DNA of 64,000 nucleotides from Firmicutes bacterium CAG:321_26_22 (GCA_001916775.1 MNTB01000030.1:33962-97961), one strand, 5' to 3'. Shown: positions 10,410 to 58,846, numbered from the stretch's first letter. The notes: generated by a model from the sequence alone, not told the origin. Translations and numbers: made by a program.

Positions 10410-10804
10410 CCATATAACTTCTATTTATATATATAGATGCAGGCACGACAAAAACTCACACCCACATCTCATTTTTTTTACTTTTATTTTTGATGAGATA
10501 AAGGTGTGATATTTATAGTAAACATGATTACATTACCTACATATTTATACATAAATATCCCTCCACTTATAATATATTATAGTTTTTTATTTTTGTCAAT
10601 TGTTTTTACACTGCAAGCCATTTGTCTTGCTAGTGTTATTTGGAGTCTTTGGTCTCCAAATAAGTATTAATTATACTTATTATATATAAGTATGAAATAT
10701 ATACTTAAAGTAGTTTATTATTGGTATTTTTTTTGTTATTTTGAGTATAATAATAGTGCAATATACTTGACTTTTTATGATAGTTATAGTATCATTGTAT
10801 TACC

Positions 10805-10917
10805 GGAGAGAAATCTCGTCAGGTCGATAGCTCAATGTCGATTTTATTAAATTAAGTGTATGTTAAGTACACCGCTTGAGTTGGGGAGAGACTACTAGAT
10901 AGTCTCTTTTCTTTTTA
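10805..10917 (+). ncRNA. candidate ~110-nt small RNA (promoter TTGACT-17-TATCAT at 10769-10797, terminator at 10888-10917)
   Basis: Promoter-like hexamers and a terminator bracket a non-coding stretch. Convergent with the DUF3800 gene. Confidence 0.3.
10888..10917 (+). terminator. plus-strand rho-independent terminator (agagact-actagat-agtctct + TTTCTTTTT)
   Basis: Hairpin followed by a T-run on the plus strand. No plus-strand CDS ends here. Confidence 0.55.
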
Positions 10918-11703
10918 TGGGAATAATAGTTTATGATCGATAATATCAATATCAGAATCAATATTTGATAATGCTCTTCCTCTAGTAGTACCTGCTATTA
11001 AATCTGCTGCTTGCACTAAGTAACTCTTACCTGAATCTTGATATGTTAATCTTATTTCTAATTTTCCATATAATATATTTTTGTATATTATGTCATAATT
11101 AAAATTAGATATTCCATGTAGTAATTCTTCTGTTAGACCATCTTTTAAATTATAATAACCATTACTTTTTGTAGATTGTTCATCTATATTTATTATTAAT
11201 CTCACATTTTTATGTGGGTCTATTTTTTTATCTTTTATTAATTCTTCAATGGTACTTTTAATTAGTCTTCTTATTGTGTAATCTATGTATCTTCCTTTTG
11301 AGGCTTTATTATTTATAATATGATTATATACTTTTGTATTATTTATTACTAGGGCAATAGTATAATATTTACTTATGTAGTTCATAATCCTTCTTTTATG
11401 ACCTTTCTTGATATTTGTATTTTTTATTTCTTTACATTTTTTAGTACATTCTCCTTTTGTTTGGTCACAGTAAGAACATTTTATTTCATTTATTATTTGG
11501 CGATACTGCGTTATAAATTTATCTTTTTCTTGTTTTGATAAAAAGACTATTCCTGCATATACTGATACTTTTTCTTTTTTTGTTAATTTACCTGAATCAT
11601 CTAAATTTATATATATTTCTTGATATTCTTCTTTTTTATTCATGTAAGCGCTCCCTTCAATTGTTTTAATGTTTATTATAGCACTTACTTTTACTCTTGT
11701 CAT
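10915..11703 (-). CDS. DUF3800-family protein (likely start at the internal Met, MNKKEEYQEIYINLDDSG)
   Basis: N-terminal INLDDSG motif and C-terminal LVQAADLIAG motif, both hallmarks of DUF3800. Confidence 0.55.
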   Translation of the reverse strand: MTRVKVSAIINIKTIEGSAYMNKKEEYQEIYINLDDSGKLTKKEKVSVYAGIVFLSKQEKDKFITQYRQIINEIKCSYCDQTKGECTKKCKEIKNTNIKKGHKRRIMNYISKYYTIALVINNTKVYNHIINNKASKGRYIDYTIRRLIKSTIEELIKDKKIDPHKNVRLIINIDEQSTKSNGYYNLKDGLTEELLHGISNFNYDIIYKNILYGKLEIRLTYQDSGKSYLVQAADLIAGTTRGRALSNIDSDIDIIDHKLLFP

Positions 11704-47382: not shown

Positions 47383-48423
47383 TTATTTTTTACTTTTTTT
47401 GTAATGGCATTTCGGATAATTACTGCAGCCAATGAAAATTCCATATTTTCCTTTACGCTCTATTAATTTACCTCCACAATCTGGACAGATCATACTATTT
47501 TTCGAACTATAATCTTCCATTTTATTACTTTTACCCATATTACATCTATCACATAGGGTTTGAAGATTACTCATGACAGTTTTTCCGCCTTTAGATACTG
47601 GAATAATGTGATCAACGTGAAGTTTTGCTCCGTCTTTAGCTGATATACCACATAATTTGCAAGTAAAGTTATCTCTTTTCAAAACATTATATCTAATATC
47701 ATCATTCATAATTTTTCTTTCCTGCTTTATGGTTTCTTCGTATTTATTACCATTTTGCCATTCTTTATACAATTTAACTAAATCTTCAAAAGAATAGTTT
47801 CCATATCTAGTTTCATTAACCTTTCCTGCATTACTTCTATAATAAACTTCTAGCTTTAATTTTATTAAAAACTCTTTTCTTTTATGAATAGAATCATTTA
47901 ATACTCTATTTTCTATTTTTTGAAATTTTTTTGATGAATAATTTGTTTTATTTTTAGATTTATAATTAATAATTTTATCTACTTCTTTGGTATATTCTTC
48001 TAATAAATCGATATTATATATAGCATTTTCTATATCAGTTCTAATTAAATCAATATTATTTTCTATATGATATTTTATAATACTTGATCCTGTCACTCTC
48101 TCTAAACTTTTTCTTGAGTATTCGCGGTCTATAATATTATGTTTTTTCTTTGTTATCCTTTTAAAATGATATTTTTCGTTTAATTTATTCAATTCTTGTA
48201 TTTTTATACTTGATTTTGATACTTCTTCATTTTCTTTTTTTATCATTTTTCTTATTACAAATATATATAATATTAGTGGAAACAATCCTATCAAAGTGCT
48301 GATGACTACAATTGTTTGTTCATTTAATGCTAATAATTTAAATAATATATATGATGTATAATAACTAATATAACCACTAATGATAATTAATGTTGTTTTT
48401 TGCCATTTCTTCATATTTGACAC
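47383..48423 (-). CDS. membrane-anchored HNH endonuclease with a C-terminal topoisomerase-type C4 zinc finger
   Basis: Two N-terminal TM helices. HNH motif LHVDHIIPVSKGGKTVMSNLQTLCDRCN. CPDCGGKLIERKGKYGIFIGCSNYPKC matches the zf-C4_Topoisom pattern. Confidence 0.65.
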   Translation of the reverse strand: MSNMKKWQKTTLIIISGYISYYTSYILFKLLALNEQTIVVISTLIGLFPLILYIFVIRKMIKKENEEVSKSSIKIQELNKLNEKYHFKRITKKKHNIIDREYSRKSLERVTGSSIIKYHIENNIDLIRTDIENAIYNIDLLEEYTKEVDKIINYKSKNKTNYSSKKFQKIENRVLNDSIHKRKEFLIKLKLEVYYRSNAGKVNETRYGNYSFEDLVKLYKEWQNGNKYEETIKQERKIMNDDIRYNVLKRDNFTCKLCGISAKDGAKLHVDHIIPVSKGGKTVMSNLQTLCDRCNMGKSNKMEDYSSKNSMICPDCGGKLIERKGKYGIFIGCSNYPKCHYKKSKK

Positions 48424-49040: not shown

Positions 49041-49934
49041 TTATATTTTTTCTAAGACTCCTAATTCTAAATCTTTTATTGTATATAAGTGCTCAATTTT
49101 ATCATAGGCATCTTCTAGATTCAGTCTAGATTTGTTCCAACCATTTCCATCTGTAATCCAAACAAATTTAACACCATTTAGTTTATTAATTTCATTATTT
49201 AGTTCTACATAACTTTTTGCAGTTTCATTCGGTTTAGATCCTTGTGTTCCATAAAAATTCACTTCCATTACTATTAATTCGTTATTTGAAGGACTCTTAA
49301 AAACAAAATCAAACTTCTTTGTTGCCTTTCCTATTGCACATAGATTTGTTCCATATTCTTTATCAATATCTTTATATTTCATTTGTTTTTGATATGGTAC
49401 TCCAAGTTTTTTTATGAATTCCTCTACTAAGTCTTCCATTATTTTTCCACTGCGATTTTTTCTACTATTTGAATCTAATCCCACTTCTATCCCTATCGCA
49501 TAATCAACAAGATTCTTAATTTTTCTATTACTTATTAAGTCAAATAATCCACTATTTTTTAAAAAATCTGCATAATTGTTGATCGGCTTGTCAATTTCTT
49601 TAAAATCGTAACAAATAAATTTTTCTTCTAGAAATTTAAAGTCCATATCTTTTATGGAATTTAACATATCTACTGTTGATGCATTAATTATATGAAATTT
49701 ATATTCGTGAGTTGCTAATAAAATCGGTATTGATTTCATTATTTCTGGATACTCATTTATTAAGTCAACAAATTCTTCCTCTATATTTTCTTTTCCAATC
49801 AGGCTATTTAATAAGTTTAAATGTCTTTCATAATCTTTGATATTTAAATAAACTTTAGAAAAATCAACAAAAAAATCCGCTGGGGTTATACTTTTTTTTA
49901 ATGATAACATTAGGTCATTAAAATTTCTTTTCAC
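49041..49934 (-). CDS. putative Type II restriction endonuclease (DpnII/MboI-like, GATC-specific) - third gene of the R-M cassette
   Basis: The gene order Dam-like MTase, N6_N4 MTase, then a roughly 290-aa protein mirrors the S. pneumoniae DpnII cassette (dpnM-dpnA-dpnB). Start overlaps the upstream MTase. Confidence 0.5.
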   Translation of the reverse strand: MKRNFNDLMLSLKKSITPADFFVDFSKVYLNIKDYERHLNLLNSLIGKENIEEEFVDLINEYPEIMKSIPILLATHEYKFHIINASTVDMLNSIKDMDFKFLEEKFICYDFKEIDKPINNYADFLKNSGLFDLISNRKIKNLVDYAIGIEVGLDSNSRKNRSGKIMEDLVEEFIKKLGVPYQKQMKYKDIDKEYGTNLCAIGKATKKFDFVFKSPSNNELIVMEVNFYGTQGSKPNETAKSYVELNNEINKLNGVKFVWITDGNGWNKSRLNLEDAYDKIEHLYTIKDLELGVLEKI

Positions 49935-50697
49935 TTATATCACTTTCCTTTCTTCTTATTGTTAAATCTAAATATTCTTTTTCTTTTTCTATTCCTATAT
50001 ATCTTCTTTTTAATCTGCTTGCCGCTATTCCTGTTGTACCGCTTCCATTAAATGGATCTAATATTAAATCATTTTCCTCTGTAGAAGCAAGTATTATTCT
50101 TTCTAATATTTCAATTGGTTTTTGTGTTGGATGTTTACCACAAGTCTTTTCGCTAGGCTTTGTTAAACTAGTTTCCCATACATCTTTCATTTGCTTATTA
50201 TTATTTATTTTTTTCATTAGTGAGTAATTAAACTTATGTTTATTTTTTTTGTCGGCTTTTTTAGCCCAAAGTATTGTTTCAGTAGAATGAGTAAATGCTC
50301 TGCAACTAATATTTGGCGGTGGGTTTAATTTTCTCCAAGTAATGTTATTTATTATTTTAAATCCCTCTTCTTCTAATGCCATTCCTATTGAATAAATATT
50401 ATGCATGGTTCCACTAATCCAAATAGTACCATTTTCTTTTAGTATTTTTTTACATAGTCTAATCCATTTTTTATTAAATTCGTGTTTTTCTTTTATACTA
50501 ATTGCATTGTCCCATGGACCTTTATTAACTGATACCATCTTTCCAGCACTACAAGATATTCCATTATTTGATAAAAAGTATGGTGGATCTGCAAATACCA
50601 TATCAATACTATTTGGCTCTATATTTCTTAGTACTTTTAATGAATCTCCTTGTATTAATTTGAAATTATCTTCTTCATAATAATATTTTTTTATCAT
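49918..50697 (-). CDS. DNA methyltransferase, N6_N4_Mtase family (DpnA-like second methylase)
   Basis: Motif IV DMVFADPPY precedes motif I ILDPFNGSGTTGIAA (beta-class order). Confidence 0.8.
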   Translation of the reverse strand: MIKKYYYEEDNFKLIQGDSLKVLRNIEPNSIDMVFADPPYFLSNNGISCSAGKMVSVNKGPWDNAISIKEKHEFNKKWIRLCKKILKENGTIWISGTMHNIYSIGMALEEEGFKIINNITWRKLNPPPNISCRAFTHSTETILWAKKADKKNKHKFNYSLMKKINNNKQMKDVWETSLTKPSEKTCGKHPTQKPIEILERIILASTEENDLILDPFNGSGTTGIAASRLKRRYIGIEKEKEYLDLTIRRKESDISEKKF

Positions 50698-50714
50698 ATT
50701 ATTTATCCTATATA

Positions 50715-51569
50715 TTATAGGTCAAAGCCTCTTTTATTTTCATAATTTGTAATAATAACTTCTTCTACTTTGCCTCTTTTTTTACCATTGGCGTTGATAC
50801 TTCTCTTTGCTTCTATTAAATGTATATTATAATCTTTATAAAGTTCATTTATTAGTTCAGTATTATGATTAGATAACATTACGTAGCAGCCTTTGTCTGA
50901 TAATTCCCTATATACTCTGGCTAACCTCTTTTGTTGTTCTTTACCAAAGCCATCCTCTGTATAACTATTGAAAGTTGAGGTATCTGAATCATATGGTGGA
51001 TCAAAATATATAAAATCTCCTTTTTTTGCTTCTTTTACTGCTTCTTCAAAATCTGTTGATAATATTTTTATATCATTGTAATTTAAAAATCCACATATAA
51101 TTCCTAAGTTTTGTCCTTCATAGGTATTTACTTTTGTTTTTTTACCAAATGGTACATTAAATTCGTTTTTACTATTTACTCTGTATAATCCATTAAAACA
51201 AGCTTTATTTAAATAAATTGTTCTTGCTGCTCTTTTATAATCTACTACTTTATTAAATTTTTTCTTATCTCTATCCATATTCCTTATTGTATAATAATAT
51301 TCTTCTGAATGTTTCATTTCATGATTATTTAGTTCTCTGCACATTGCTTCAAATTTTTTTTCATCTTTAATGCATTCGTATACATTCATAAGTTCTTTAT
51401 TTGAGTCATTAATAACTGCATTCTTTGGAGATAATTCAAATAGTAATGCTCCCCCTCCAACAAATGGTTCATAATATGTATTAAACTCATCAGGAACATA
51501 TTTTTTTAATTTATCTATTATTTGTCTTTTTCCGCCTGCCCATTTTACAAATGGCCTTCCTTTTATCAT
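50715..51569 (-). CDS. Dam-family (D12 class) DNA adenine methyltransferase, GATC-type (DpnM-like)
   Basis: FVKWAGGKRQI N-terminal hallmark, EPFVGGGALLFEL SAM site, IYFDPPY motif IV. Confidence 0.85.
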   Translation of the reverse strand: MIKGRPFVKWAGGKRQIIDKLKKYVPDEFNTYYEPFVGGGALLFELSPKNAVINDSNKELMNVYECIKDEKKFEAMCRELNNHEMKHSEEYYYTIRNMDRDKKKFNKVVDYKRAARTIYLNKACFNGLYRVNSKNEFNVPFGKKTKVNTYEGQNLGIICGFLNYNDIKILSTDFEEAVKEAKKGDFIYFDPPYDSDTSTFNSYTEDGFGKEQQKRLARVYRELSDKGCYVMLSNHNTELINELYKDYNIHLIEAKRSINANGKKRGKVEEVIITNYENKRGFDL

Positions 51570-51866: not shown

Positions 51867-51998
51867 AAAATCAGAGACTATTAAGAGGCTCTGATTTTCT
51901 ATAGAAAGACATTAGGCTTTCTATAGCAGTGAACAACGAAGTGTGAACTCTAAAAAAGAAGGATTTATTTTTTCCTTCTTTTAAATATTTTTACTAGT
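51867..51998 (+). repeat. intergenic double-hairpin repeat, copy F (100-nt perfect direct repeat of copy E)
   Basis: aatcagag-ACTATTAAGAGG-ctctgatt, then ctatagaaag-ACATTAGG-ctttctatag, then GTGAACAACGAAGTGTGAACTC. Confidence 0.8.
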
Positions 51999-52664
51999 TT
52001 TATCTATAAACCATAACAATGGATTTTGTCTCTCTAATTCTTTATCTAAGTTATTATTATTTGTATCTTTATTATCTTTATTGTCATTTCTTTCTCTATT
52101 TTCATCTTCTTTTTCTGGCTCTTTAGTTGTCTCTTTATTATCTTCTTTTAGTTCTTCTACTGGTGGTTTAGTAGTTGTAAACTTACTATAATTATTAGTC
52201 CATGCTGCATCATAATATGTATTTTCTGTTCCTAATGCCATATATAATCCTTTATTATAGTGGTATTTTTTTACTATTGACTCAGTATTTTTAGTTAGTA
52301 ACATTTGCCCTCCGCCATAACCTGCAGTTTCAGTTAGGTAGATATCTTCAGTGTTATATATCTTTGTTCCTACTATGAAAGGTCTGGCTCTAGTTTCTGA
52401 TAGTTTTTCATTTATCATATTTAGAAATCTATCCCACCCCATATCTAGTGTTCTATGAGGACAATATTTATTAGTGTAATCCTGGTGTTTTGTTACTTTA
52501 TCGATATCCCAATTATATCTATTTAATATGTCTACGATTAGGTCAACTGCATTCTGTTCGGCTTTAATAAATCGGTCTCCTCCTGATAATGAATAACATA
52601 TTTCAATGGCTATTCCTTCTCTATTTCCTTTACCATTTCCATCCATATAATCTAATGTTTCCAT
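51981..52664 (-). CDS. N-acetylmuramoyl-L-alanine amidase (Amidase_2/PGRP), exon 2 (C-terminal part) of an intron-split endolysin
   Basis: REGIAIEICYS and KYCPHRT continue the Amidase_2 fold that begins in 53462-53698. The C-terminal linker is rich in K/E/D/N. Confidence 0.7.
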   Translation of the reverse strand: METLDYMDGNGKGNREGIAIEICYSLSGGDRFIKAEQNAVDLIVDILNRYNWDIDKVTKHQDYTNKYCPHRTLDMGWDRFLNMINEKLSETRARPFIVGTKIYNTEDIYLTETAGYGGGQMLLTKNTESIVKKYHYNKGLYMALGTENTYYDAAWTNNYSKFTTTKPPVEELKEDNKETTKEPEKEDENRERNDNKDNKDTNNNNLDKELERQNPLLWFIDKTSKNI

Positions 52665-53467
52665 TAGTACTGACTATCTCTTACATTTTAAAATGCACAC
52701 CCGTTTCGAGTTATGTATCAATAATAACCCTACGAAGCGATTGGGCTTCTAGTCGATACAGGTTCCTTTTTGACAAATTTATATCCACCAATTTGTTTTC
52801 CTATACCATTTATATTTCTTGAAATATGTCTTATATCTAAATTTGTTTCTTTACTTGCTTCATTAATACTCTTATATTCTCTTATAAAGTTGCCTTCTAA
52901 ATCATATTGTAGAATCGGTGTAATATCGGTTGATTTTCTCAAACCAGTCTTATAAGCATGAGTATTATTTTGATAAAGAGTACACCATTCCAAATTATCA
53001 ATATAATTATTTTGTTTATTTCCATCTATGTGATTTACGTATGAATAATTATTTGGATTGGGTATAAACGCTTCAGCCACAAGTTTGTGAATATGTTTGT
53101 TTTTTTCTACCTTGTTTTTTGTTAAACATATTCTCCTGTAGCCTCCATTTATTGTTCCTTGTGTTATTTTTTCTTTTACTTTTATAATATTATATCTTTT
53201 TGTCAAATAATTATATCTGGTGTAATTTCTAGCAAGTATTTTTACATTTCCAAAGTTAGATATTTCGTATAGTCCTTCATAATCTTTTATAGGTTTCCAT
53301 ATTTCTTTCATCACCATCACCCATAAAGATTATATAAAAATAGTAAATATATGTCAATAGGCTTCCCACGGGATTGCCATATCTTAAAGACTTAGGTTTC
53401 CCCGTTAGCACACAAAAATGTGTACCCCACTGATTAATGGAAAAAGTGTGTTCAGGCAATGTTACTT
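52662..53467 (-). mobile_element. group I intron (about 806 nt) carrying an HNH homing-endonuclease ORF, inserted in the endolysin gene
   Basis: Exon 1 ends ...CAGGU. The intron segment GCCUG 10 nt downstream forms P1 with a terminal U-G wobble. The intron ends in G (omega) and an exon 1 + exon 2 join is in frame (...NGWHAG/ETLDYMDGNGKGNREGIAIEI). A P7-like GACTA/TAGTC pair and an AAGAgATAGTC S-like element sit near the 3' end. Confidence 0.65.
52730..53320 (-). CDS. HNH homing endonuclease (NUMOD4 + HNH_3), intron-encoded
   Basis: WKPIKDYEGLYEISNFGNV (NUMOD4) and HIHKLVAEAF...VNHIDGNKQNNYIDNLEW (HNH). Confidence 0.8.
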   Translation of the reverse strand: MMVMKEIWKPIKDYEGLYEISNFGNVKILARNYTRYNYLTKRYNIIKVKEKITQGTINGGYRRICLTKNKVEKNKHIHKLVAEAFIPNPNNYSYVNHIDGNKQNNYIDNLEWCTLYQNNTHAYKTGLRKSTDITPILQYDLEGNFIREYKSINEASKETNLDIRHISRNINGIGKQIGGYKFVKKEPVSTRSPIAS

Positions 53468-53698
53468 ACCTGCGTGCCAACCATTTCTATTTTCAGCCAA
53501 TCCTTGAACTATTTCTTTATCATCTACAGCATAATGAAATGATGTTTCATAGTCATTATTTGTCATATAACTTATTTCATTTCGAGCAGAAGCATCGTTA
53601 GCGGTATTATGAACTACTATTCTAGTTGGTGTCATTTCATAAGGGCATTTTAGATAATATCTACTCTCTGGTACTATCTTCTTTACTATGTTTACCAT
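53462..53698 (-). CDS. N-acetylmuramoyl-L-alanine amidase (Amidase_2), exon 1 (N-terminal part)
   Basis: RIVVHNTANDASARNEISYM...SFHYAVDD...GWHAGK matches the Amidase_2 N-terminus. It stops at a TAA immediately after the predicted 5' splice site. Confidence 0.7.
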   Translation of the reverse strand: MVNIVKKIVPESRYYLKCPYEMTPTRIVVHNTANDASARNEISYMTNNDYETSFHYAVDDKEIVQGLAENRNGWHAGK

Positions 53699-53975
53699 TA
53701 TTTCCCTCCTTTATTAATTTTTCTATATTATGAATAAGATTATATCCTGTTTCGGCGAATAGTCCACTTAAGGTTATGGCTAAATTGAAGTCTTTGGTTA
53801 TTATAAAATAGAATATTGATACTGATAGTCCAATTACTATGTTTTGTATTATTATTAGATTGTTATTTACATAAGGACATCTTTTAGAAATAAAACCAAG
53901 TATCCATGTTAATGTCATAGTAAGTAGGGTTATTACTAGTTCGGTATTTTGATTTATGAATTCCATGTTTTTCAC
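53661..53975 (-). CDS. phage-type holin (104 aa, 2-3 TM helices, charged C-terminus)
   Basis: Hydrophobic helices plus a KEGNNGKHSKEDSTRE tail. Overlaps the amidase start by 38 nt, the classic holin-endolysin arrangement. Confidence 0.6.
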   Translation of the reverse strand: MKNMEFINQNTELVITLLTMTLTWILGFISKRCPYVNNNLIIIQNIVIGLSVSIFYFIITKDFNLAITLSGLFAETGYNLIHNIEKLIKEGNNGKHSKEDSTRE

Positions 53976-57904: not shown

Positions 57905-58846
57905 CTACTTATCTATTATTTCTATATAATTTTCTGGAAATCCCATTCTATCTAATACTTTACTTATTGGAATGGTATCCACTCTTCCATCTAACAATTC
58001 TATTTCATATTCTATTTCTTTCATCATTAAACGAAAGGCTTTTTTATTTAGTAATATTTTAAAGATTATAATTACTGCAAATAAGTCATTTTTACCATAA
58101 ATATATTCGCCATCCATTTTTGGTATTTCCATCATATCATGATATTCTGTATCCGGTATTACCCTTTCGGTTTTATGTTCAAACACGATATCTTCATGAG
58201 CACATAAATTTCGATAGTTGGATAATATTATTAGTATATCTGATAAGACACTTGGTGTAGTATCAAAAACTTCTGCCACTTCAATTTGGTCTTCTTTCTT
58301 TAATATGGTATATAATTCACAAACTATTCCGAATGATAATACTTTTACTAAAACCCATAAGGGAATATAACCGTAGTTATTTATGTAGTGTATTGTAGCA
58401 TTATGGGTTGTAGCATTGATTCTTATTTGTCTTTTCATCTTATCAATTAAGTCACGAACACGGCGTGCTTTATCATGATCTTGAGTGAAGTTTTTAGGAT
58501 TTAAATAATCTTTTTCACGATATCCATACTTCTTGGATAATTGATATGATATTACTGATTTTAATTGATTTTCGATAACAAGTACATTTTTAAATATTAT
58601 ATTTCTAAAATTCCTATCAAATGTGAATAATGAGTATATTTCATCAAAAGTTGTACCGGGTATGAATTTTCTTTCTTTTTGTGATATAAGGAAGGCGTGA
58701 CGATAGCCCATTAAAAAGAAATAGTTTTCTCTGAGTAGGGTATCTTTAACGACATTTTCATCTTCAATTATAAGACCTTTGTTTTTTAATATTTCTACTT
58801 GTTCATTTATTGTCTTAAAATTTTTCTCCACAATATCAACTCCCAT
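57905..58846 (-). CDS. Abi_2-family abortive infection protein (AbiD/AbiF-like, HEPN-type RNxxAH motif)
   Basis: YFFLMGYRHAF and the YRNLCAHED motif. 313 aa. Confidence 0.7.
   Translation of the reverse strand: MGVDIVEKNFKTINEQVEILKNKGLIIEDENVVKDTLLRENYFFLMGYRHAFLISQKERKFIPGTTFDEIYSLFTFDRNFRNIIFKNVLVIENQLKSVISYQLSKKYGYREKDYLNPKNFTQDHDKARRVRDLIDKMKRQIRINATTHNATIHYINNYGYIPLWVLVKVLSFGIVCELYTILKKEDQIEVAEVFDTTPSVLSDILIILSNYRNLCAHEDIVFEHKTERVIPDTEYHDMMEIPKMDGEYIYGKNDLFAVIIIFKILLNKKAFRLMMKEIEYEIELLDGRVDTIPISKVLDRMGFPENYIEIIDK

Follow-up and report, generated by a model that had tools for sequence, protein, structure and literature searches.

Why does a cell-wall amidase gene on the chromosome of an uncultured gut bacterium appear in pieces, with an endonuclease gene lodged between its two halves? 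We examined this question in a 64,000-nucleotide (nt) stretch of Firmicutes bacterium CAG:321_26_22 (GCA_001916775.1 MNTB01000030.1:33962-97961), hereafter the window, to which all window coordinates refer. On its minus strand, the list of open reading frames (ORFs) runs from a holin-like ORF through Amidase_2 exon 1 and an endonuclease ORF to Amidase_2 exon 2, and gene callers break the amidase into three ORFs. An earlier reading of this DNA, referred to below as the original prediction, had interpreted the arrangement as an amidase gene split by a group I intron that carries an HNH homing endonuclease. Our analysis leaves us highly confident that a genuine mobile group I intron, with boundaries 53467..52644 on the minus strand, splits the Amidase_2 (N-acetylmuramoyl-L-alanine amidase) gene, and it relocates the 3' boundary. 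The features concerned are the following (aa, amino acids).

53468..53698, minus strand: amidase exon 1, 77 codons, ending ...TGG CAC GCA GGT (W H A G); defined by Amidase_2 and the intron-less allele L002
52644..53467, minus strand: group I intron, 824 nt, IA2 / Twort-td type; defined by exact insertion relative to L002 and covariation in 24 relatives
52730..53311, minus strand: HNH homing-endonuclease gene, 193 aa, in loop L6a; from the ATG at 53311, the listed ORF extending to a GTG at 53320
51981..52643, minus strand: amidase exon 2, starting GAT GGA AAT GGT (D G N G); defined by Amidase_2 and the PlyG alignment

An intron-less allele fixes both ends of the insertion

Both halves of the amidase are recognized by Pfam: the exon-1 ORF (53698..53462, minus strand) matches Amidase_2 profile positions 3-66 (E 1.2e-9) and the exon-2 ORF (52664..51981, minus strand) matches positions 66-130 (E 3e-6), bearing out the claim that N- and C-terminal Amidase_2 halves lie on one strand with an HNH ORF between them. 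We compared the window with two contigs, one carrying the same split gene (L001) and one carrying an uninterrupted gene (L002) in which the gene order, tsaE-tsaB-rimI-tsaD-holin-amidase, is that of the window. A three-way DNA alignment of these sequences with MAFFT showed a single clean gap of 824 nt, corresponding to window positions 53467..52644. Writing the junction as a caret, the intron-less allele L002 reads CACGCCAGT^GACGGAAAT, whereas the interrupted alleles read CACGCAGGT, 824 nt, and then GATGGAAAT. Both boundaries are thereby fixed to the base by the intron-less allele, with the 3' splice site at 52644/52643 and an intron of 824 nt.

A protein search with the joined exons returned hundreds of uninterrupted homologues, the closest being 94% identical over 306 aa, and those that we aligned all read NGWHA(S/G)-DGNGKGNREG. 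With the corrected junction, WHAG^DGNGKGN, checking the spliced protein against the Amidase_2 profile, as had been proposed, gave one continuous domain (73.6 bits; profile positions 3-130 of 131). The ligated product also aligned with the PlyG catalytic domain (PDB 2L47, WACGDGNGSGNR) at E 6e-54, gap-free across the junction, and with PlyL (PDB 1YB0) at E 2e-53; its catalytic domain is ~56% identical to Bacillus phage endolysins. The corrected junction restores the true protein from the three ORFs of the gene callers. Eleven shorter matches from the amidase search were checked as further exon-2 fragments and proved to be truncated uninterrupted genes, the sole true exon-2 call being protein P0016.

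The original prediction had instead ended the same intron at G 52662, with a 3' splice site at 52662/52661, a length of 806 nt and a protein reading WHAG/ETLDYM-DGNG. A G does stand at 52662 before an in-frame GAA, as had been observed, and the product containing ETLDYM would still form one continuous Amidase_2 domain (72.7 bits). However, this site lies 18 nt too early: the intron-less allele is without those 18 nt, and the six residues that they would encode occur in no aligned uninterrupted homologue. The 18 nt after 52662 are the 3' strand of helix P9, which covaries, and a conserved tail leading to the invariant terminal G (omega-G) of the intron, and the exon partner of helix P10 is GAUG at 52643, not GAAA at 52661. 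Given in addition the gap-free alignment of the corrected product with PlyG, we consider an end at 52662 very improbable.

Covariation supports a group I ribozyme fold in the sequence flanking the endonuclease ORF

We then derived a secondary structure for the noncoding parts of the 824-nt intron. Its elements, 5' to 3' along the transcript, are listed below, with hp1 and hp2 denoting two extra hairpins.

53453..53472, minus strand: P1 and guide; exon CAGGU (53472..53468) pairs with GCCUG (53457..53453), with a U53468-G53457 wobble
53445..53450, minus strand: P3 5' strand CACACU, pairing with GGUGUG at 52701..52696
53440..53427, minus strand: hairpin hp1, CCAUU/AGUGG; covariation, and present in the minimum-free-energy fold
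53434..53431 with 52720..52717, minus strand: hp1 loop AUCA with L7.2 loop UGAU; covariation
53425..53408, minus strand: hairpin hp2, GUACACA/UGUGUGC; covariation, and present in the minimum-free-energy fold
53368..53405, minus strand: P4 (ACGGGG/UCCCGU) enclosing P5, with J3/4 UAA just upstream; Rfam half match
53352..53366, minus strand: P6 (GG) and P6a 5' strand (CCU.UUGACA), partner at 52775..52761 (UGUCAA..AGG..CC)
52671..52756, minus strand: catalytic 3' domain; Rfam half match of 18.3 bits and covariation
52756..52750, minus strand: P7 5' strand, comprising U52756, bulged C52755 and GACUA 52754..52750
52749..52734, minus strand: P7.1
52730..52708, minus strand: P7.2
52701..52696, minus strand: P3'
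52695..52684, minus strand: P8
52683..52677, minus strand: J8/7, UAAGAGA
52676..52671, minus strand: P7 3' strand, UAGUCA
52644..52667, minus strand: P9 CUAAUG-GAAA-CAUUAG (52667..52652), tail AUUAUAU and omega-G 52644

A relaxed Rfam scan matched the Intron_gpI model in two parts, one over 53405..53326 (the P4-P6 part, model positions 60-139; 21.4 bits, E 0.0065) and the other over 52832..52651 (the P7/P8/P9 part; 18.3 bits). Further relaxed matches in the region (Plastid-atpF, snoRNAs and others) were disregarded as chance. Searching with each noncoding part together with a few flanking exon bases, we found that the 5' part and the 3' part from P6a' onward match dozens of viral loci at 65-80% identity. 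In some of these viral relatives the halves are separated by an ORF of 0.6-1.1 kb and in others by just 3-40 nt, and one ORF-less relative (L203:5395-5632) scores 60 bits against Intron_gpI, whose gathering threshold is 50. A search for the P4/P5 motif, ACGGGGAAACC-N(6-30)-GCAATCCCGT, recovered it from no fewer than 120 viral contigs. A blastn search of cultured phages with the whole intron matched the HNH coding part only; an ORF-deleted query reached relatives in Lactococcus phage AM1 and Enterococcus phages.

The sequence features listed in the original prediction are all there on the minus strand, well beyond what chance would give, and several could be placed exactly. Its P1, CAGGU/GCCUG with a terminal U-G and the guide 10 nt into the intron, is present; 19 of 24 relatives have the U-G pair, and P1 changes in step with their differing exons. 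The adjoining guide bases CAUU (53461..53458) pair with the first exon-2 bases, GAUG (52643..52640), to form P10, a helix that most relatives form with their own unrelated exons. Likewise, the two strands suggested for P7, GACTA at 52754..52750 and TAGTC at 52676..52672, both exist, and the J8/7-like element reads AAGAGATAGTC at 52682..52672. At the level of sequence, the layout of P7 is a U52756-A52671 pair, bulged C52755 and then G52754-C52672, and the pair beside the bulge varies among U-A, G-C and A-U. P6a pairs CCU.UUGACA (53361..53352) with UGUCAA..AGG (52775..52765), as judged from complementarity within the window, ORF-less relatives and the fold, and both P6 pairs covary (GG/CC, UG/CA, GC/GC, AC/GU, UA/UA). 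The hp1 and L7.2 loops vary in concert (AUCA/UGAU, GCCA/UGGC, ACCA/UGGU, GUCA/UGAC), which suggests a loop-loop tertiary (kissing) contact.

Two other layouts were rejected. A canonical P3 5' strand just upstream of UAA-P4, pairing with the bases after GACUA, finds no complementarity there. An alternative P7 at GACUA 53274..53270, inside the ORF, would put the ORF in P8; ORF-less relatives place the ORF in P6a and P7 at 52754.

The structure was tested by covariation in an alignment of 24 introns of the family, from which the P6a loop and the ORF were removed in silico where present. The tested structure, derived from the window, comprised P1, P3, P4-P6, P7, P7.1, P7.2, P8, P9, the two extra hairpins and the loop-loop contact; as controls, pairing partners were slid by 1-3 columns, and 500 shuffles were run. 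In the proposed structure 93.1% of cells were paired (35-42% when slid), 44 of 63 pairs showed changes on both sides (22-29 when slid), and the covariation score was 0.565, as against ~0.10 for slid partners, a value that none of the shuffles reached (0/500). All pairs covaried in P3 (6/6), P6 (2/2), P7.1 (5/5), P7.2 (7/7) and P8 (4/4), as did 5/6 in P9, three pairs in hp1, four in hp2 and 3/4 in the hp1-L7.2 contact, where 97.9% of cells were paired. P7 covaried at 2/6 pairs, including the one beside the bulged base; in P4, P5 and most of P7 the 24 relatives do not differ, so that covariation says nothing about these parts. The window's own sequence forms 59/59 pairs of the first structure tested, and an ORF-deleted, GAAA-capped construct folded at -67.4 kcal/mol (z = -3.1) with the local helices reproduced. 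The terminal-G column of the alignment is invariant, and G52644 is the last inserted base relative to L002. Together, our results show the secondary structure of the intron and its membership in a widespread phage intron family, and the P4-P6 domain, P3-P8 domain and P3/P7 pseudoknot of a conserved group I core are all present.

These results bear on another explanation of the locus, in which a free-standing HNH gene lies between two amidase fragments without any ribozyme, giving two polypeptides or no expression. Free-standing HNH genes are common in phage genomes. Yet covariation supports a group I core in the 242 nt flanking this ORF, ORF-less relatives have that core as well, one of them scoring above the Rfam threshold, and the insertion is bounded exactly by the P1 U-G pair and the terminal G. 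We therefore regard a free-standing gene as exceedingly improbable.

The intron ORF encodes a putative homing endonuclease

The prediction of a complete NUMOD4-HNH ORF at 52730-53320, inside the amidase, held: the protein exceeds the Pfam cut-offs for NUMOD4 (48.5 bits), HNH_3 (30 bits) and NUMOD1 (31.2 bits), and comes just under the 27-bit cut-off for I-HmuI_NUMOD-like (25.2 bits). It also matches PHROG 59 (HNH endonuclease; 1e-47) and PDB 1U3E (chain 'HNH homing endonuclease'; E 7e-10), which we take to be I-HmuI. Many phage homing endonucleases share 40-48% identity with the protein, and the endonuclease of the phage K lysin intron shares 45% over 104 aa. The last ~14 codons overlap P6a', P6', J6/7, P7 and P7.1, with the stop UAG at 52732..52730, and similarity to other endonucleases stops near residue 182, in agreement with this overlap. 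The same arrangement has been described for the nrdF intron of B. thuringiensis, whose ORF begins within the P6a loop and extends over P7 (PMC2248736).

Predicted splicing of the amidase transcript

If the intron follows standard group I chemistry, the folded ribozyme would pair the final five bases of exon 1, CAGGU, with the guide GCCUG as P1, and an external guanosine held in P7 would attack after U53468. P10, between exon-2 GAUG and guide CAUU, would align the 3' exon, G52644 would swap into the G site, and the exons would be joined as ...GCA GGT^GAT GGA..., yielding one amidase, of 297 aa in the window copy. Intron bases 4-6 are a UAA in frame with exon 1, and this stop would halt ribosomes entering the intron; in-frame intron stops have been seen as a ribosome stall that lets the RNA fold (2014 review, PMC3984707).

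The ligated junction, TGGCACGCAGGT^GATGGAAATGG, supplies a diagnostic k-mer for splicing in gut metatranscriptomes, TGGCACGCAGGTGATGGAAATGG, because close intron-less alleles read GCCAGTGA(C/T) instead. The corresponding unspliced-junction k-mers of intron-bearing copies are GCAGGTAAGTAACATTG and TTATATGGATGGAAATG.

Intron-bearing and intron-less alleles coexist at one chromosomal locus

A genome scan found the amidase gene in metagenome-assembled genomes of uncultured gut 'Bacilli'/'Tenericutes', among them CP091726.1 (1.46 Mb) and Clostridium sp. CAG:302, a lineage that we take to be the RF39 order. The gene is uninterrupted in ~15 related species representatives, whose TsaD proteins are 81-99% identical and which nearly always keep the tsaD-holin-amidase order. 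In UMGS1739 (uncultured Tenericutes; contigs L148 and L097) an identical intron is present, the assembly is broken inside the HNH gene and the amidase is spread over two contigs; this break may have been caused by repeated HNH sequence or by a mix of intron-bearing and intron-less strains. Scanning metagenomes with a 26-nt intron probe yielded 11 further copies, all in the amidase gene, so that the intron-bearing copies (n = 14: the window, L001, UMGS1739 and 11 metagenome contigs) all concern the same gene. The intron is thus naturally polymorphic for presence and absence at one chromosomal locus.

Among 13 copies we counted variable sites in each part of the locus, and found 0/242 in the ribozyme-only part, 12/582 in the ORF, 8/231 in exon 1 and 71/663 in exon 2. 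An invariant insert in diverged exons is the pattern expected from recent homing in human-gut populations, to which strong purifying selection on the ribozyme would add. Intron-bearing alleles all read GCA GGT^GAT and close intron-less alleles GCC AGT^GA(T/C); the exon differences, at -4 and -3, both complete P1 pairs, and fit either co-conversion from a donor or selection for splicing. We infer that homing is ongoing. In such a cycle the I-HmuI-like endonuclease would presumably cut or nick intron-less alleles (GCC AGT^GAY GGA) near the insertion site, a predicted activity to which the polymorphism at one site and the invariant intron in diverged exons lend indirect support, and repair from an intron-bearing copy would insert the intron together with a few flanking exon bases.

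Observations that weigh against an active mobile intron

Several points weigh against a genuine mobile group I intron in this amidase gene. One is that splicing in vivo is a prediction from sequence. Another is that Rfam at its gathering threshold (50 bits), applied to the whole window, gives no match to Intron_gpI (RF00028). The scan proposed as a check returned two half matches to the right model, both below threshold. The score is split and sub-threshold because the 580-nt ORF inside P6a cannot be spanned by the model. For comparison, the phage K lysK intron likewise falls below gathering, with halves of 33.4 and 23.7 bits; to count the lack of an Intron_gpI hit as refutation, as had been suggested, was too strict, since this annotated intron fails alike.

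The donor side is a further weakness. No intron-bearing phage lysin was found as donor, the 80 closest viral amidase lysins (≤89% catalytic-domain identity) all being uninterrupted, and GCAGGT^GAT stands at the site in 0/39 viral lysins with a readable site. In addition, the 5' helix order departs from the textbook group I layout. The P3 5' strand (53450..53445) directly follows the guide, no P2 precedes P3, and hp1 and hp2 (53440..53408) come before UAA-P4, an arrangement other than the canonical IA2 5' order of P1-P2-P3-J3/4-P4. The IA2 hallmark of P7.1 and P7.2 between P7 and P3' is present, and the post-P3 hairpins are common to the whole phage intron family. A literature search on 'P3.1' in group I introns found nothing relevant on post-P3 hairpins.

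Lastly, the window has a private 11-nt deletion (ATAATAAAATT) at ~51999/51998 on the minus strand, near the exon-2 3' end, which shifts the frame and replaces the conserved tail ...DKIIKLLVKIFKRRKK by ...DKTSKNI and a stop; the window allele of the amidase may be impaired or truncated by it, or the deletion may be an assembly error. Such a frameshift would be in keeping with a decaying relic, in which splicing has been lost and strains with the intron are left with a split amidase pseudogene. However, the 11 nt are present in L001, in L002 and in the six other intron-bearing loci that cover the region. In the window no helix of the first structure tested is broken. Across the 13 compared copies the exons are variable at 3-11% of sites and the ribozyme-only part at none; all copies have an undamaged endonuclease ORF, and the reading frame stays open in both exons. 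A relic is improbable on this evidence, if less so than the two alternatives considered above.

Genomic context of the amidase

The genes around the split amidase include the following.

53661..53966, minus strand: holin-like small membrane protein, 101 aa; from the ATG at 53966, the listed ORF reaching a GTG at 53975
49041..51569, minus strand: DpnII-type (GATC) restriction-modification cassette directly downstream of the amidase; D12 methyltransferase, N6_N4 methyltransferase and DpnII endonuclease, complete
47383..48423, minus strand: 346-aa protein with HNH_5 and a topoisomerase-type zinc ribbon, beyond the restriction-modification cassette
57905..58846, minus strand: Abi_2 (abortive-infection-like) protein

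The 3' end of the holin-like ORF overlaps the amidase start by 38 nt. Its position in the gene order and its two hydrophobic segments (~residues 10-26 and 37-57, followed by a charged C-terminus) would fit the label 'holin' that had been given to it, while its Pfam match, to Phage_holin_5_2, stays below the cut-off (19.1 against 29.2 bits); a PHROG search with the protein gave no match. The ORF is kept beside the amidase in ~15 species. Protein P0002 (386 aa), from a 2438-nt contig in the European Nucleotide Archive (ENA), joins the holin-like ORF to the amidase in one frame (…NIEKLVKKIVPES…), which implies a deletion at the holin/amidase overlap. In some related species (L090, L091, L092 and L095) ~1.3-1.5 kb of additional DNA lies between tsaD and the holin-like gene.

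Upstream of the amidase locus are tsaD, rimI, tsaB, tsaE, an HtrA-like protease and the Abi_2 protein, and downstream, past the restriction-modification cassette and the HNH_5/zinc-ribbon protein, is a UvrD/PcrA helicase gene. The HNH_5/zinc-ribbon and Abi_2 proteins may be defence genes flanking the cassette. We saw no phage structural or replication genes near the amidase locus in the window surroundings; with tsa genes on one side and the restriction-modification cassette on the other, the claim that no other phage genes lie nearby was upheld. The position of the holin-amidase cassette beside tsaD is conserved across species, which argues that it is long-resident and of host or domesticated origin, not a recent prophage remnant. 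Elsewhere in the window, the sole RNA family at gathering level is the Rfam DUF3800-I RNA motif (10795..10919, plus strand; 65.6 bits, gathering score 44.2).

Comparison with known introns

The closest precedent, already named in the original prediction, is the intron-split lysin of Staphylococcus phage K. A tblastn search with lysK first matched intron-less kayviruses, and the phage K record was then read directly: in its RefSeq entry the endolysin is a join of two segments that flank an HNH endonuclease gene, and a holin gene stands just upstream. Exon 1 ends ...AWHTG (then K and a stop) and exon 2 starts DGTGANSGN. The two introns share their insertion point in homologous Amidase_2 codons, TGGCACACGGGT^GATGGA (WHTG^DG) in phage K and TGGCACGCAGGT^GATGGA (WHAG^DG) in the window, and this identity of site is shown directly by the two sequences. 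Both start AA(A/G)UAA..AUUGCC with an in-frame UAA at bases 4-6, both have an HNH/NUMOD ORF in the P6 region and both P7.1 and P7.2, and each host gene is preceded by a holin gene (a holin-like ORF in the window). They differ in that the phage K intron is 876 nt long and belongs to a lytic staphylococcal myovirus, whereas the window intron is chromosomal with no surrounding phage genes. Their ribozymes also differ: that of phage K has the canonical P1-P2-P3-J3/4-P4 order (a UUAUACA..UGUAUAA hairpin, then UUCUUU pairing with GGAGAA), and the two sequences can be aligned in the core only. In a kayvirus the lysin gene is reported to be split by the I-KsaI intron, I-KsaI being the name of the phage K lysin-intron endonuclease, and peptides of both halves were detected by liquid chromatography-tandem mass spectrometry (LC-MS/MS) (PMC5618024).

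In its ribozyme, the window intron instead resembles a family of IA2-like phage introns sharing ACGGGGAAACC...GCAAUCCCGU, found in Lactococcus phage AM1, Enterococcus phages VRE9_3 and EF1 and many IMG/VR contigs. Each helix of the window intron has its counterpart there, as do both post-P3 hairpins and the contact of hp1 with L7.2. The noncoding parts are 65-82% identical, and some members have HNH ORFs in L6a while others are ORF-less. The host genes differ, being 'DNA gyrase' in AM1 and other genes in the IMG/VR contigs, and all members are on viral contigs. In AM1 (L272; KY554768.1 53329..54285) 'DNA gyrase' is annotated as two coding sequences with a 'hypothetical protein' between them, and the 5' part of this gap is 82% identical to the window intron family; the gap is probably a group I intron that holds an ORF and has escaped annotation. 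The 3' domain of the window intron has the layout that we presume for Twort orf142-I2 and T4 td, namely CGACUA, P7.1, GUA, P7.2, GAAA(U/C), P3', P8, J8/7, UAGUC and P9 with a GAAA loop. Those two introns, hosted by orf142 and thymidylate synthase, have P2 before P3 and a short L7.2.

The 5' layout raises the tentative possibility, to which we give rather less than even weight, that an undescribed IA2 sub-type (no P2, two post-P3 hairpins and an hp1-L7.2 contact), widespread in Gram-positive phages, crossed into a vertically inherited, autolysin-like host gene at the site that a canonical IA2 intron occupies in phage K. If true, one site would have received different ribozyme scaffolds, brought there by homing endonucleases of related specificity.

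Group I introns in bacterial protein-coding genes are rare, and chromosomal cases have been described in recA, nrdE and a flagellin gene (2014 review, PMC3984707) and in nrdF (PMC2248736). The window intron shares this kind of host gene with those of recA and nrdE/nrdF in the Bacillus cereus group, flagellin in thermophilic Bacillus and cyanobacterial nrdE; it differs in residing in a cell-wall amidase of uncultured gut Bacilli with genomes of ~1.5 Mb and, relative to the nrdF intron with its GIY-YIG enzyme, in carrying an HNH enzyme. An amidase gene of an uncultured, small-genome gut lineage is thereby added to the few chromosomal protein-gene cases. With the phage K intron already known, what is new here is the chromosomal, non-prophage host gene, the host lineage, the population polymorphism and the ribozyme sub-type. 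Because the phage K intron occupies the same site, the conserved WH(A/T)G^DG stretch is a target to which homing recurs in the Amidase_2 lysins of only distantly related hosts, and this target is a likely route for phage introns into host genes.

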